From Gemmatimonadota bacterium (GTDB lineage Bacteria; Gemmatimonadota; Gemmatimonadetes; Longimicrobiales; Gaopeijiaceae), in NCBI GenBank assembly GCA_040905545.1, contig JBBDRI010000032.1, forward strand, positions 89,230 to 121,229: a DNA stretch of 32,000 bases. Reading direction: 5' to 3'. This document shows, in pieces, positions 28,259-32,000 of this stretch. Below the pieces are notes generated by a model. It made no database searches, was not told where the DNA came from, and saw only the letters and a list, made by a program, of their open reading frames with translations. The position numbers were made by a program, and so were the translations under genes. Within the stretch, counting starts at the first letter, position 1; the number at the start of each line of letters is the position of its first letter.

Positions 28259-29287
28259 ATGTCCCAAACCGACATGGCCTTGCACCTCCCGTGGGGCGAG
28301 ACTGGAGTCATGTCGTCCCCCGGGCCCTCCATTCTGCATGAACTGAGCGTCGCGATTCGAACACGCCACTACAGCCGGCGGACGGAGCAGGCCTACGCCC
28401 ACTGGGTGGAGCGCTTCCTGGGTCACCATAGGGTTCGGTCACCGGAACAGCTTGGTGCCGAAGAAGTCAACGCGTTCTTGAGTCACCTGGCCGTGGAGCG
28501 GAAGGTGGCGGCGCCCACGCAGGCCCAGGCCAGGGCTGCGTTGCTCTTTCTATACCGGCACGTCCTCCGAAGGCCGCTGGATGCTGAGGTCGGTACTGGA
28601 TCCATCGTCCGTGCGCACGTTCCCAAGCGGCTTCCGATGGTCCTCTCGAGGCAGGAGATTCGGGCGCTTCTCGCCTCAATGACGCCCCCGGGCCGTACCG
28701 TGGCCCTCCTCCTCTACGGCGGAGGGCTCCGCCTGAATGAGGCGCTCCACCTTCAGGTTCATGACCTCGAGTCTGAGCGCGGTCAGCTTACCGTACGGGG
28801 AGGGAAAGGGAACCGCGACCGCATCACCCTTTATCCCGCAGCTGCCGTTCCGGCGGTGGAGGAACAGCTCCGACGCACCCGCCTGATGCATGAGCGGGAT
28901 CTAGCTCGGGGCGCCGGGAATGTCCCCCTTCCTGCGGCGTTGGCCCGCAAGTACCCCGGCGCGCCCCGGGAGTGGGGATGGCAGTGGCTTTTCCCGGCTT
29001 CCCGGCTTCACCACAGCCCTCGCACCGGCGCCGGATTCCGGTGGCCGCTTCACCCCTCAGCGGTGCAGCGGGCCGTCAAGGAGGCTGTGAGGGCAAGTGG
29101 AATCTCGAGTCGAGCGTCCTGCCACACCCTCCGGCATTCCTTCGCCACCCATCTCCTGGAGGACGGCTATGACATCCGTACGATCCAGGAGCTTCTGGGA
29201 CACCGCAGCGTGAAGACGACCATGATCTACACACACGTTCTGGACCGGGGAGGACGAGGTGTCCGGAGTCCTCTCGATGGGTTGTGA
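28259..29287 (+). CDS. intI: Integron integrase (IntI-type tyrosine recombinase)
   Basis: N-terminal IRTRHYSRRTEQAYAHWVERFLGHH. Box I: LLLYGGGLRLNEALHLQVHDL. The IntI-specific insertion PLPAALARKYPGAPREWGWQWLFPASRL...SPRTG is absent from XerC/D. Box II: CHTLRHSFATHLLEDGYDIRTIQELLGHRSVKTTMIYTHV, then the C-terminal GVRSPLD. An alternative start is ATG 28310 (MSSPGPSILHEL). Confidence 0.93.
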   Translation: MSQTDMALHLPWGETGVMSSPGPSILHELSVAIRTRHYSRRTEQAYAHWVERFLGHHRVRSPEQLGAEEVNAFLSHLAVERKVAAPTQAQARAALLFLYRHVLRRPLDAEVGTGSIVRAHVPKRLPMVLSRQEIRALLASMTPPGRTVALLLYGGGLRLNEALHLQVHDLESERGQLTVRGGKGNRDRITLYPAAAVPAVEEQLRRTRLMHERDLARGAGNVPLPAALARKYPGAPREWGWQWLFPASRLHHSPRTGAGFRWPLHPSAVQRAVKEAVRASGISSRASCHTLRHSFATHLLEDGYDIRTIQELLGHRSVKTTMIYTHVLDRGGRGVRSPLDGL

Positions 29288-29504: not shown

Positions 29505-29541
29505 GTTGAACGGTCGGTGGGCGGCTGAAAGGGCGTTAGAG
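29505..29541 (+). other. Candidate attI core with recombination point G(29535)|T(29536)
   Basis: GTTAGAG at 29535-41 is in the context GGCGTTAGA, identical to the GGCGTTAGA at the attC R' box (31376-84). Its reverse complement CTCTAAC is exactly the R'' box closing cassette 1. A second GTTRRRY-type box, GTTGAAC, is at 29505-11. The extent and architecture of attI are not resolved. Confidence 0.5.
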
Positions 29542-31379
29542 GACCTGCGAGCGGGAGACATTTGTTGCGAATCAATACTAAGGGCGCCCTTGCGCTCTTC
29601 CTGCCAGTGGCCATTGCCGCGTGCCACATCGTTGGGCAGTCCGTGAGCGACGGCGAGGACCTCGCCGCCGTGGGCAGCCTTGCCCTCAAGCACGCATCCG
29701 TCGTCTCGTTGACGGGGGACTCCGTACTCCGAGACTGGACGCTCGTTCTTGCGGACGGCGAGATTGTCGCGCTCGGGCCGACGGGTTCGGTCCCGATACC
29801 TAGAGGAGCTCAGGTCCGCGACTTGGACGGACGCTACGTCGTTCCAGGCCTAATCGATGCGCATGTTCATCTGAGGGAACCTGCACTGAGCCTGGCGTTG
29901 TTTCCTTCGTACGGTGTCACAACAGTGGTGAACCTTCAGGGTGAAGCGTCACACCTCGCCCTGCGGGATTCGATCCTCGCGCACGGGATCTTCGCCCCCC
30001 GCATCCTGTCTTCTGGCCCATTCATCGACCGGGTTGTGAAGTCGCCTGCGGAGGCGAGGCAGGAGGTCCGGCGCCAGCACGGCGCGGGCTTCGATCTGAT
30101 CAAGATCCATGGAGTGATGGAGGAGCGCACGTTCGCGGCCACCATCGAGGAAGCACGCCGATTGGGCCTGCCGGTAATCGGCCATCACCCGAGGAATCTC
30201 GAGACCGGCACGGTGCTCGAGGGGCTCGACGCACTCGCTCACGCCGAGGAGCTCCTCCGATCATCTCTTCTCGATCAGCCGCGTGGACTCGCATCGGACT
30301 CGGTGGACGTGTTAGCCCGCACCGTGGTCGAGTCCAACACCAGACTGATTACGACACTCGGGTTCTTTACGGGCATGCGGGATCAGGCGACCGACCATTT
30401 CTACCAGATGATCAGCCAGCCCGAGTTGGCCTATGTGTCGCCCGAGCGTCGCAGGGAGTGGCTCTACGACGGACACCGTGAGTACATCCCCCGCTCCGAG
30501 CTTCCCTGGTACGACACGGCCGTCGTCATCCTCCACAGGGTCACCGGTGCAATCCACAAGCGAGGCGGTGTGATCATCGCGGGTACGGACACTCCTCTCG
30601 AGTTTACGATCCCCGGAATATCACTTCATCGGGAGCTGCAGCATCTGGTCGCCGCCGGGCTCACGCCGCTCGAGGCGTTGCGCGCGGCAACCGTTTCATC
30701 AGCCGACCTGCTGGGAGCCCCGGCGCTGGGAAGAATAGAAGTCGGCGCGTCGGCGGACCTCCTCATCCTCAGCCAGGATCCCACCCATTCGTTGGCCGCG
30801 CTTGACGAACTGGAGGCGGTGATCTTGCGAGGAATGTGGATTCCGAGGACTGAGCTGGAGCGGAGACTCAATCACGTCGCAGCGGCCTATGCGCGGGAGG
30901 ATGTCGCGTGGGCTGCTGGTCAACGGATCCAGGATGCCGTCATGGATCTGCTTCATAGCGAGGGGATACCGGCAGCGTTTTCCGAGATTCAGCGTATATC
31001 CGAGATTCCGGGCGTCCCCCCGATGACCGAACGTGACCTTAACACGATCGGCTATCGGCTACTCGCCAATTCGGCGATCAACAGGGCGATCGAAGTGTTC
31101 CAGCTCAATGCACGGCTCCACCCAGGTTCCGCGAACGTGTACGACAGCCTCGGTGAAGCGTTGCTAACGGCGGATCGCCTCGACGAAGCGGAGACGAACT
31201 ATCGTCGTGCCTTGGAACTCGACTCTACCATGGATTCGGCCCGACGCGGTTTGCGAACGATCGCGGAAAGACGTTGTGACGCAGAAGTTTGCCGGTGAGC
31301 GCAGGAGGTCGCGGTGGTCCTCTAACAGGCCGATGAACCTGCCGGTCGCCTTCGGCGCCCGCAGGTTATCGGCGAGGCG
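29536..31379 (+). mobile_element. Integron gene cassette 1 (1844 bp)
   Basis: It starts TTAGAG and ends with the G of the attC R' box. Circularising it would rebuild R' = G+TTAGAG, perfectly complementary (7/7) to its own R'' CTCTAAC (31320-26). It holds a single + strand ORF. Confidence 0.75.
29562..31298 (+). CDS. Secreted/lipoprotein amidohydrolase (COG1228-like metallo-hydrolase) with C-terminal TPR repeats
   Basis: Lipobox LPVAIAAC. Amidohydrolase metal-site motifs: PGLIDAHVHL, FDLIKIHG, VIGHHP, AHAEEL, IIAGTDTP. C-terminal TPR-like segment: ANVYDSLGEALLTADRLDEAETNYRRALELDS. TTG starts at 29562 and 29565, with GGGAG at 29553-57. Confidence 0.85.
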   Translation: MLRINTKGALALFLPVAIAACHIVGQSVSDGEDLAAVGSLALKHASVVSLTGDSVLRDWTLVLADGEIVALGPTGSVPIPRGAQVRDLDGRYVVPGLIDAHVHLREPALSLALFPSYGVTTVVNLQGEASHLALRDSILAHGIFAPRILSSGPFIDRVVKSPAEARQEVRRQHGAGFDLIKIHGVMEERTFAATIEEARRLGLPVIGHHPRNLETGTVLEGLDALAHAEELLRSSLLDQPRGLASDSVDVLARTVVESNTRLITTLGFFTGMRDQATDHFYQMISQPELAYVSPERRREWLYDGHREYIPRSELPWYDTAVVILHRVTGAIHKRGGVIIAGTDTPLEFTIPGISLHRELQHLVAAGLTPLEALRAATVSSADLLGAPALGRIEVGASADLLILSQDPTHSLAALDELEAVILRGMWIPRTELERRLNHVAAAYAREDVAWAAGQRIQDAVMDLLHSEGIPAAFSEIQRISEIPGVPPMTERDLNTIGYRLLANSAINRAIEVFQLNARLHPGSANVYDSLGEALLTADRLDEAETNYRRALELDSTMDSARRGLRTIAERRCDAEVCR

Positions 31380-31385
31380 TTAGAC
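31320..31385 (+). other. attC recombination site (66 bp)
   Basis: R'' is CTCTAAC (31320-26) and R' is GTTAGAC (31379-85, fits GTTRRRY). L'' GATGAAC (31332-38) pairs with L' GTTATC (31365-70). 31329-50 pairs with 31354-73 over 20 bp, with one mismatch (C31343/C31360), two bulged bases (G31335, T31346) and a 3-nt apical loop (ttc). It starts 21 nt after the cassette-1 stop. Confidence 0.8.
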
Positions 31386-32000
31386 AGCGCGAAATCTGCC
31401 GAATGGATATAGGAAGGGCTTTGGCCGAGTTGGCGCACTGGATTTCGAAGTAGTACATCATCCGCGCAAGCCGGAACTTTAGGCCCTGGCGGAGTTCTTG
31501 TCCCCCCTTTTCGGTAGGAGGCGGTGATGCTGCTACGCACGACGGTCGTCGTTCTCTTAGCGGCAATGTTCGGAGCCTGCGGTGCTGCACCCGCGGCGGA
31601 TGACCTCAGGGAGGAGCTACGCACTTCGTCCGATCAATACTGGGCGGCAGTGGCTCGCCAGGATGCCGAGGAGGTTACGAGTTGGTGGCTCGAGGACGCC
31701 GTGGTGCTCGGCTCGGGAATCCACCTCGTGGGGCGAGCCGCACTGCAAGAGATGCTTGAGGGACTCTACCCGGCTTTGACGGTCCACAACATGGAAGTCT
31801 TGGATCGAAGCATCGACGCTGCTGGGAACCTTGGTATCGAAAGGGCGCGGTACCGCGAGGTGATCAGTCTTGGTGGGGGGCCACAGCAGACTGTAGACGG
31901 GTCCTATCTCGCTCACTGGCGCCGCGACTCGGAAGGTCAGTGGAGAATCAAGGCAATGGTACTCGCTACTGCCGGTGCTGACTCGCTTCACTCGCAGTAA
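31380..32000 (+). mobile_element. Integron gene cassette 2 (5' boundary defined; 3' attC beyond the window)
   Basis: It begins TTAGAC at the attC crossover and contains one + strand ORF ending exactly at 32000. Its own attC is expected to have R'' = GTCTAAC and is not in the window. Confidence 0.6.
31527..32000 (+). CDS. SnoaL-like / DUF4440 (NTF2-fold) lipoprotein
   Basis: AGGAGG (31516-21) lies 5 nt before ATG 31527; GTG 31524 is the track start. Lipobox LLAAMFGAC. The size (~157 aa) and pattern (YWAAVARQDAEEVTSWWLEDAVVL...GSYLAHWRRDSEGQWRIKAMV) are typical of DUF4440/SnoaL_3 proteins. TAA stop at 31998-32000. Confidence 0.7.
   Translation: MLLRTTVVVLLAAMFGACGAAPAADDLREELRTSSDQYWAAVARQDAEEVTSWWLEDAVVLGSGIHLVGRAALQEMLEGLYPALTVHNMEVLDRSIDAAGNLGIERARYREVISLGGGPQQTVDGSYLAHWRRDSEGQWRIKAMVLATAGADSLHSQ

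Follow-up and report, generated by a model that had tools for sequence, protein, structure and literature searches.

An attC site with a bottom-strand C in its L box, from a Gemmatimonadota chromosomal integron, probably represents a common natural subtype of canonical geometry

We propose that the 66-nt element at positions 31320-31385 of a 32,000-nt stretch of DNA from a Gemmatimonadota bacterium (GCA_040905545.1, contig JBBDRI010000032.1, here C32; the whole stretch is called the window) is a genuine integron attC site of canonical geometry that would be recombined through its bottom strand. We further propose that the unpaired C which this strand presents in the L box of the site, here termed attC1, marks a common natural subtype of attC (N-N6-C) that is tied neither to the integrase of this integron nor to the co-oriented layout of its integrase gene and cassette array, and we put the probability of this interpretation at roughly 0.88. 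The identity of that base, a bottom-strand L-box C and not G, is the only departure from the textbook site. Relaxed base identity is general and has already been published, and the inverted integron-integrase layout, in which intI and the attC sites are co-oriented, is likewise known and is paraphyletic (Cury et al. 2016, PMC4889954). From the structure, the array, its polarity and the distribution of the variant, all of which can be read from the DNA, we infer that the site is recombined and which strand would be used. Coordinates are positions in the window unless a contig (C32, C35, C24, C39) or a locus (L followed by a number) is named.

Read on the + strand, attC1 consists of the R'' box CTCTAAC (31320-26), a spacer AGGCC (31327-31), the L'' box GAT[G]AACCTG (31332-41, the bracketed base being G31335), the two arms of a distal stem, CCGGTCGCC and GGCGCCCG, which flank a TTC loop (31351-53), the L' box CAGGTTATC (31362-70), a second spacer GGCGAGGC (31371-78) and the R' box GTTAGAC (31379-85). 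The loop represents the variable terminal structure (VTS) and the two spacers form the unpaired central spacer (UCS), which is asymmetric, with 5 nt on one side and 8 nt on the other. The R'' and R' boxes pair at six of seven positions and fit the consensus sequences RYYYAAC (6/7) and GTTRRRY (7/7), and L'' and L' form 3 + 6 bp around the lone extra G31335. Folded as single-stranded DNA, the + strand reaches -20.8 kcal/mol (z -3.1 against shuffled sequences) and the - strand -22.6 kcal/mol (z -3.8). The initial annotation had described a well-formed 66-bp attC with six of seven R''/R' pairs, a single bulged G31335 and a TTC loop; these details are read directly from the sequence, and the site as a whole is borne out by its fold and by an array of at least ten sites on the same strand. 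An Rfam scan of the window gave no matches, and Rfam is without an attC family.

The position of the distal bulge in attC1 is ambiguous. The 13 further pairs proposed initially, with a C/C mismatch and a bulge at T31346, do form, and there is a second fold in which C31342/31343 is bulged and the mismatch is T/C. The two lie within 0.5 kcal/mol of each other (-11.4 vs. -11.2 kcal/mol on the top strand, -13.3 vs. -13.8 kcal/mol on the bottom strand), and T31346 is not secure. The minimum-energy fold of the bottom strand takes the C31342/3 bulge, not T31346, and the former position fits both the canonical 6-bp spacing and the attC of the aadA5 cassette. Because the aadA5 attC aligns column for column with the covariance model of the array described below, the comparison indicates that 31342, and not 31346, would be the homologous distal bulge. 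Hence, of the two bases that the bottom strand was initially said to present, the C at the L box stands and the A depends on one of two equally stable folds.

We conclude that attC1 is not a chance hairpin because a covariance model finds nine sites on the same strand and a tenth is found by structure and chain complementarity. The model, R1, was built from four 74-nt array sites (+ strand) with a hand-written structure; the 90-nt second site, attC2, was left out of the seed since a MAFFT alignment that included it misplaced R''. R1 recovers its nine array sites on the + strand only, at C32:120545-120618 (attC1 itself, 85.4 bits), C35:25-122, C35:6203-6276, C35:8623-8719, C35:9387-9460, C35:22201-22274, C35:23060-23133 (27.5 bits, a degenerate site that reads GAC for AAC and GGT for GTT), C35:23762-23835 and C35:25617-25690, and the tenth, at C35:24399-24516 on the + strand, was located by a structural scan and by the chain rule and links the eighth and ninth sites. 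The array therefore holds at least ten attC sites, all on the + strand, from C32:120.5 kb to C35:25.7 kb, with intI about 2 kb upstream. AAC and GTT are retained in 9/10 sites, and none of the ten has extra bases outside the R''-L'' arm (the 5' arm on the + strand), as the initial annotation had stated for attC1. The L'' consensus is CGT[G]AACCTG. Tabulated over the ten sites, the L-box bulge on the top strand is G in eight and A in two, never the textbook C, such that the bottom strand presents C (8/10) or T (2/10) and departs from the usual, non-defining description of these bases as typically G and T. The base after CTG, 6 bp further on (the N6 position), is variable (top strand A in four sites, C in three, T in two and G in one). 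The spacers are 5/8 or 5/9 nt in the eight sites captured by the structural scan, and the loop reads TTC on the top strand (GAA on the bottom) in 7/9 sites.

The chain rule provides a further description of the array. The extended R'' of each site was compared with the bases that follow G|TT in the preceding site, and 11, 12, 11, 9, 10, 8, 11 and 9 of 12 positions are complementary along the array, with about 11/12 and 12/12 for the links through the tenth site, as against only 5-9/12 for the two boxes within one site. Complementarity of this kind between cassettes is what exchange at G|TT is expected to leave.

The integrase gene itself, intI (28259-29287, + strand), encodes a protein of 342 aa that matches TIGR02249 with 389.9 bits (cut-off 265) and the Vibrio integrase VchIntIA (2a3v) with an E value of 7e-81, its catalytic residues R158, K183, H289, R292, H315 and Y324 all fall in invariant alignment columns, and a whole-genome search found no other integron integrase. 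With intI on the + strand and all attC sites on the + strand downstream of its 3' end, the layout is the inverted, co-oriented one; the integrase reads into its own cassette array, and this is a chromosomal integron. The attI crossover box, G|TTAGAGGACC (29535-29545, + strand), lies where cassette 1 begins: GTTAGAGGACCT is found at 29535, 248 nt beyond the intI stop codon, and the 12 nt from 29535 agree at 11/12 positions with attC1's extended R'' (TGGTCCTCTAAC, 31315-31326) in reverse complement. Because of this match, cassette 1 can be delimited as 29536-31379 (+ strand), comprising a 578-aa amidohydrolase-TPR ORF (29562-31298; Pfam Amidohydro_1/3 and TPR) and its own attC. Cassette 2 starts at 31380 and runs to the window end at 32000, with a DUF4440/SnoaL-like ORF (31524-32000, + strand; Pfam DUF4440). 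Its attC starts 71 nt beyond the end of the window, with the remainder on contig C35. Contig C32 stops 105 nt after the window, its final bases being R'' and L'' of attC2, and the attC2 R'' (GCGCTGTCTAAC) is the reverse complement of 31379-31390 at 12/12 positions. The tail of the contig (C32:121280-121334) is identical to C35:1-55, an exact overlap of 55 nt that places the assembly break inside the second attC, and the array therefore continues on C35 for about 25.7 kb.

Which strand of such a site is recombined depends on where the unpaired bases lie. In the textbook sites the extrahelical bases of the bottom strand are G and T (PMC2727003, PMC5027507), in agreement with the initial annotation. 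By the published definition the recombinogenic bottom strand is the one in which the extra bases lie opposite its AAC (PMC5027507), and strand selectivity is attributed to the localisation of the extrahelical bases (Nivina et al. 2016, PMC5027507). The extra bases of attC1 are on the + strand arm that carries AAC, hence opposite the AAC of the - strand, and this is the canonical geometry. The GAA loop is also the conserved bottom-strand VTS of mobile-integron sites (PMC5027507). The polarity of the array is of particular value here. Its intI-proximal end is a bare GTTAGAG box with no hairpin (a scan with R1 found no attC hairpin upstream of the crossover box at 29535), its far end is a complete attC, and the ORFs lie upstream of their own attC, with 21 nt from the stop codon to R''. 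Extended R''/R' complementarity was considered as an orientation test and was rejected, since both readings predict it alike; it is the polarity at the attI end that discriminates between the strands.

The orientation in which model R1 meets other integrons points the same way. It matches 18 attC sites in 10 relatives with the divergent layout, all located upstream of intI and on the strand that does not carry it, their top strand, and the aadA5 attC from a class 1 integron fits the model in the top-strand orientation, with the bulged C and A of aadA5 in the same columns as the array G and the post-CTG base (position 27). The attC sites of dfrA5 and dfrA14 are found in the top-strand orientation as well, and for aadA5, dfrA5, dfrA14 and the 18 divergent-integron sites alike this is the only orientation that R1 reports. 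Use of the bottom strand would almost certainly be canonical.

The identity of the bulged base was examined in 80 loci encoding IntI relatives (47-61% identity) from many phyla. A scan blind to the bulged base (AAC, 4-8 nt, 3 bp, one bulge, 6 bp ... 9 bp, 4-11 nt, GTT) gave 167 matches, compared with 30-45 in shuffled loci, and 137 of them lie where an array is expected. The top-strand L-box bulge is G in 53, C in 17, A in 4 and T in 4 of the 78 sites in co-oriented arrays, and G in 31, C in 24, A in 3 and T in 1 of the 59 sites in divergent arrays; matches in other placements are few and their base is roughly uniform. Counted per locus, G predominates in 8/13 arrays of the co-oriented and 8/12 of the divergent layout, which lends no support to the relevance to the co-oriented layout that had initially been ascribed to the unusual base. 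G and C sites are mixed within six arrays (L069, L051, L056, L052, L071 and L055), and a single integrase would evidently handle both. Where the relatives' sites have a clean second bulge at N6, its top-strand base is A (bottom T) in 53/58, and this A is found together with an L-box G in 28 sites and an L-box C in 25. The R'-side spacer is the longer one in 113/136 of the relatives' sites. Our literature search turned up no tabulation of bulge identity over environmental integrons.

Cassettes from clinical plasmids show the same two types. The attC sites of aac(6')-Ib, arr-3 and aadA5 carry a top-strand C, those of dfrA5, dfrA14 and dfrA15 carry a top-strand G, and dfrA cassettes of both class 1 and class 2 integrons are included. 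One further plasmid match (L084) had no usable cassette array. As a separate observation, the aadA2 attC of a class 1 integron on a Klebsiella plasmid (NZ_CP089428.1; L091 3170-3195) has an internal deletion and reads GTCTAACTCCGGCGTTAGAT, having lost the hairpin and retained both core boxes. Judged from the sequences sampled, the top-strand G bulge occurs widely, independently of the co-oriented layout, and can stand beside the textbook type in arrays served by one integrase.

Published mutagenesis is consistent with this distribution. As reported by Bouvier et al. (2009, PMC2727003), a change of the L-box G16 of a Vibrio site (VCR) to C left attI x attC recombination 2.7-fold lower and made attC x attC recombination 1.2-fold higher; they concluded that the nature of the L-box base is non-essential, whereas strand selectivity switches when the bases are transferred to the opposite arm. 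Similarly, T-N6-C sites are excised as well as or better than T-N6-G sites by IntI1, IntI3, IntI2*179E and SonIntIA, the natural attC of dfrA1 is A-N7-8-C, and a spacing of 6 nt is optimal (Larouche & Roy 2011, PMC3053210). The initial annotation had left two explanations for the C, a relaxed base identity and a different choice of strand. The former is supported by the relatives' tallies and by mutagenesis, and the latter is opposed by the canonical geometry, the polarity, the GAA loop and the orientation of the R1 matches.

Several observations weigh against our interpretation and should be set beside this evidence. Model R1 favours G at the bulge column, so that the tally rests on the simple structural scan, in which about 15% chance matches are expected. 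The bottom strand is on average only 0.7 kcal/mol more stable than the top strand, with mixed sign across sites. The top strand has a GC skew of +0.04 to +0.14 in 8/9 array sites, such that the G-rich purine skew of the bottom strand is absent or slightly reversed, and the AT skew of the array is mostly positive; both skews are opposite to those of mobile-integron attC sites, whose bottom strand shows purine enrichment (PMC5027507). The positive top-strand skew comes largely from the G-rich GAGGG spacer and from the G bulge.

The closest known systems help to place the site. The aadA-type attC sites of class 1 integrons (aadA7, aadA1, aadA5) share with it a length of about 60-66 nt, the RYYYAAC and GTTRRRY boxes, a 5-nt R''-L'' spacer, a single bulge in L'' with a second bulge 6 bp further on, a distal stem rich in GC and a loop of TTC (bottom strand GAA), and that of aadA5 agrees with R1 in the same orientation. 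They differ in the L'' bulge (C top/G bottom in aadA vs. G top/C bottom in the array site), in the L'-R' spacer (6 nt vs. 8 nt in attC1) and in the distal bulge (A top/T bottom vs. a top-strand C or T in attC1). The bottom-strand L-box C is shared with the attC sites of dfrA1, dfrA5, dfrA14 and dfrA15 and with the engineered T-N6-C sites of Larouche & Roy (2011), which are recombined by IntI1, IntI2*, IntI3 and SonIntIA (PMC3053210). The top strand is TAT[G]CAATTG[A] for dfrA5 as for dfrA14, and GCA[G]CAACTG[A] for dfrA15, although these sites are AT-rich, longer (87-89 nt) and belong to mobile integrons of classes 1 and 2, whose intI is divergent. Chromosomal integrons with an inverted integron-integrase (known from Treponema, among others; PMC4889954) share the co-orientation of intI and attC and the attI downstream of the intI stop codon, and five relatives from Acidobacteriota and Thermoanaerobaculia (L024, L059, L065, L070 and L073) have both the same layout and the same TG-bulge L'', but their IntI proteins are only 50-58% identical to the present one.

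A comparison can also be made with the VCR sites and VchIntIA (PDB 2A3V), which share the hairpin architecture, the IntI-specific insertion and most of the residues that contact the L-box base. The VCR sites are about 120-130 nt long and have a branched VTS and bottom-strand G, T, T bulges, whereas attC1 is 66 nt long with a bottom-strand C. The VchIntIA residues in contact with the L-box base (G20''), Q145, W157, K209, Y210 and W219, align to H168, R180, K231, Y232 and W241 of the present IntI, and are conserved or IntI1-like (R180 is as in IntI1). The clamp of VchIntIA on its distal thymine T12'' consists of P232, H240 and H241 (PMC3053210, citing the 2A3V structure), and these align to P254, W262 and P263, the W262-P263 pair being encoded at about 29042-29047 on the + strand (the region of residues 256-262 is 29024-29044). 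A W-P pair thus replaces the His-His clamp here, which is a further difference from the five relatives of inverted layout named above.

In the mechanism that we propose for attC1, the bottom (-) strand would fold into the hairpin and would be bound by two IntI monomers, at the R box and at the L box. The unpaired bases of the R''-L'' arm, which lie opposite the 5'-AAC-3' that is cleaved, together with the asymmetric 5/8-nt spacer, would mark the bottom strand as the substrate, and cleavage and exchange would take place in the R' box of that strand, between A and C, the point read as G|TT on the top strand. Integron integrases would, on this model, recognise the position of the L-box base and not its identity.

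The alternative that survives best is compatible with this mechanism and retains the bottom strand, namely that the integrase and its sites have co-adapted, with the W262-P263 pocket tolerating or preferring distal bulges other than T. We consider it possible, with the odds clearly against it. Among 81 sequences, of which three others align poorly at this point, only this IntI and that of L010, a Longimicrobiales metagenome-assembled genome (MAG) with F-P at the clamp positions, have Pro for the second His within the conserved R-aromatic-x-L context, P254 here corresponds to P232, and the variable N6 base of the array (A4, C3, T2, G1) can be compared with the A in 53/58 of the relatives' clean bulges. 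The W-P clamp and the variable distal base together suggest a putative integrase/site co-adaptation. However, the sample amounts to ten sites from one array, several N6 positions may be mismatches and not bulges, the sites within the relatives' arrays are not mutually independent, and the first His is often Y, F or W among the 81 sequences with no visible change in the bulge; the L010 locus, which has the sole other Pro integrase, offers no attC array for comparison, only a collapsed remnant. With the same reserve we mention the evolutionary form of this idea, in which the lineage would have exchanged the near-universal His-His clamp for W262-P263 while its array lost the conserved distal T (bottom strand T4, G3, A2, C1), as a natural case of integrase/attC co-evolution, and its broader extension that the bottom-strand L-box C may even be the majority type in non-proteobacterial chromosomal integrons.

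It is quite unlikely that the integron is a decaying relic in which the hairpin is kept only as a terminator-like structure and the bulge identity reflects drift. The degenerate site at C35:23060-23133 and two isolated attC-like relics elsewhere in the genome would fit such decay, but the intI frame is intact with all catalytic residues present, the AAC/GTT boxes, L box, bulge and spacers are kept in 9/10 sites, the bulged G is conserved and not drifting, and cross-cassette complementarity is nearly perfect for most cassettes. The least probable explanation, and a very improbable one, is an altered strand choice in which the integrase folds and recombines the + strand as an adaptation linked to the co-oriented layout: the + strand bulges are G and, in the T31346 fold, T, the textbook identities, and the slightly positive top-strand GC skew in 8/9 sites is as such a strand would have it (PMC5027507), but the resulting geometry is the one that disfavours integrase binding (PMC5027507), the crossover should fall at R'' and a hairpin should stand beside attI, where a GTTAGAG box is found by itself, with a full attC at the far end of the array, the G bulge is equally frequent in divergent integrons and also occurs in dfrA cassettes, and the distal bulge varies with no conserved T.

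Some further features of the genome were recorded alongside the integron. The cassettes on C35 are unusually large and carry big hydrolases (L081 113-8715), including a 6.1-kb cassette with several genes, among them those for a 1006-aa PD40-amidohydrolase and for a protein of the type I phosphodiesterase family, and a 2.4-kb cassette with a DPP-IV/S9 peptidase of 744 aa. Inside the array, C35:9457-22204 (L081 9457 to L082 2204) is a stretch of 12.7 kb with no detectable attC and with genes on both strands, among them a BTAD-domain regulator and a BlaI/penicillinase-repressor-domain protein, and could represent either an insertion or a cassette of very large size. The two isolated attC-like sequences found by R1 far from the integron, at C24:89796-89869 (+ strand, degenerate) and C39:95583-95680 (- strand), have the same TG-AAGCTG L'' with a bulged G. 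Contig C24 also contains a 127-nt near-perfect hairpin between GGTTAAC and GTTAACC (C24:411-537), about 600 nt from a gene for a 378-aa Xer-like tyrosine recombinase (C24:1150-1971, - strand) that scores under the integron-integrase cut-off.

Our interpretation, in which attC1 is a bottom-strand site of the N-N6-C subtype, would leave the current mechanism of cassette recombination little affected, since the site is as that model predicts, in that what counts is where the extrahelical bases lie and not which bases they are. Among the 80 relatives sampled, the type with a top-strand G (bottom C) is at least as common as the textbook type, and the "G and T" rule, which derives from mobile-integron and Vibrio sites, would be unfit for orienting or rejecting environmental attC sites. 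The array itself represents a clean natural set of N-N6-C sites together with a cognate integrase that lacks the His-His clamp, and it could serve studies of how integron integrases recognise extrahelical bases.

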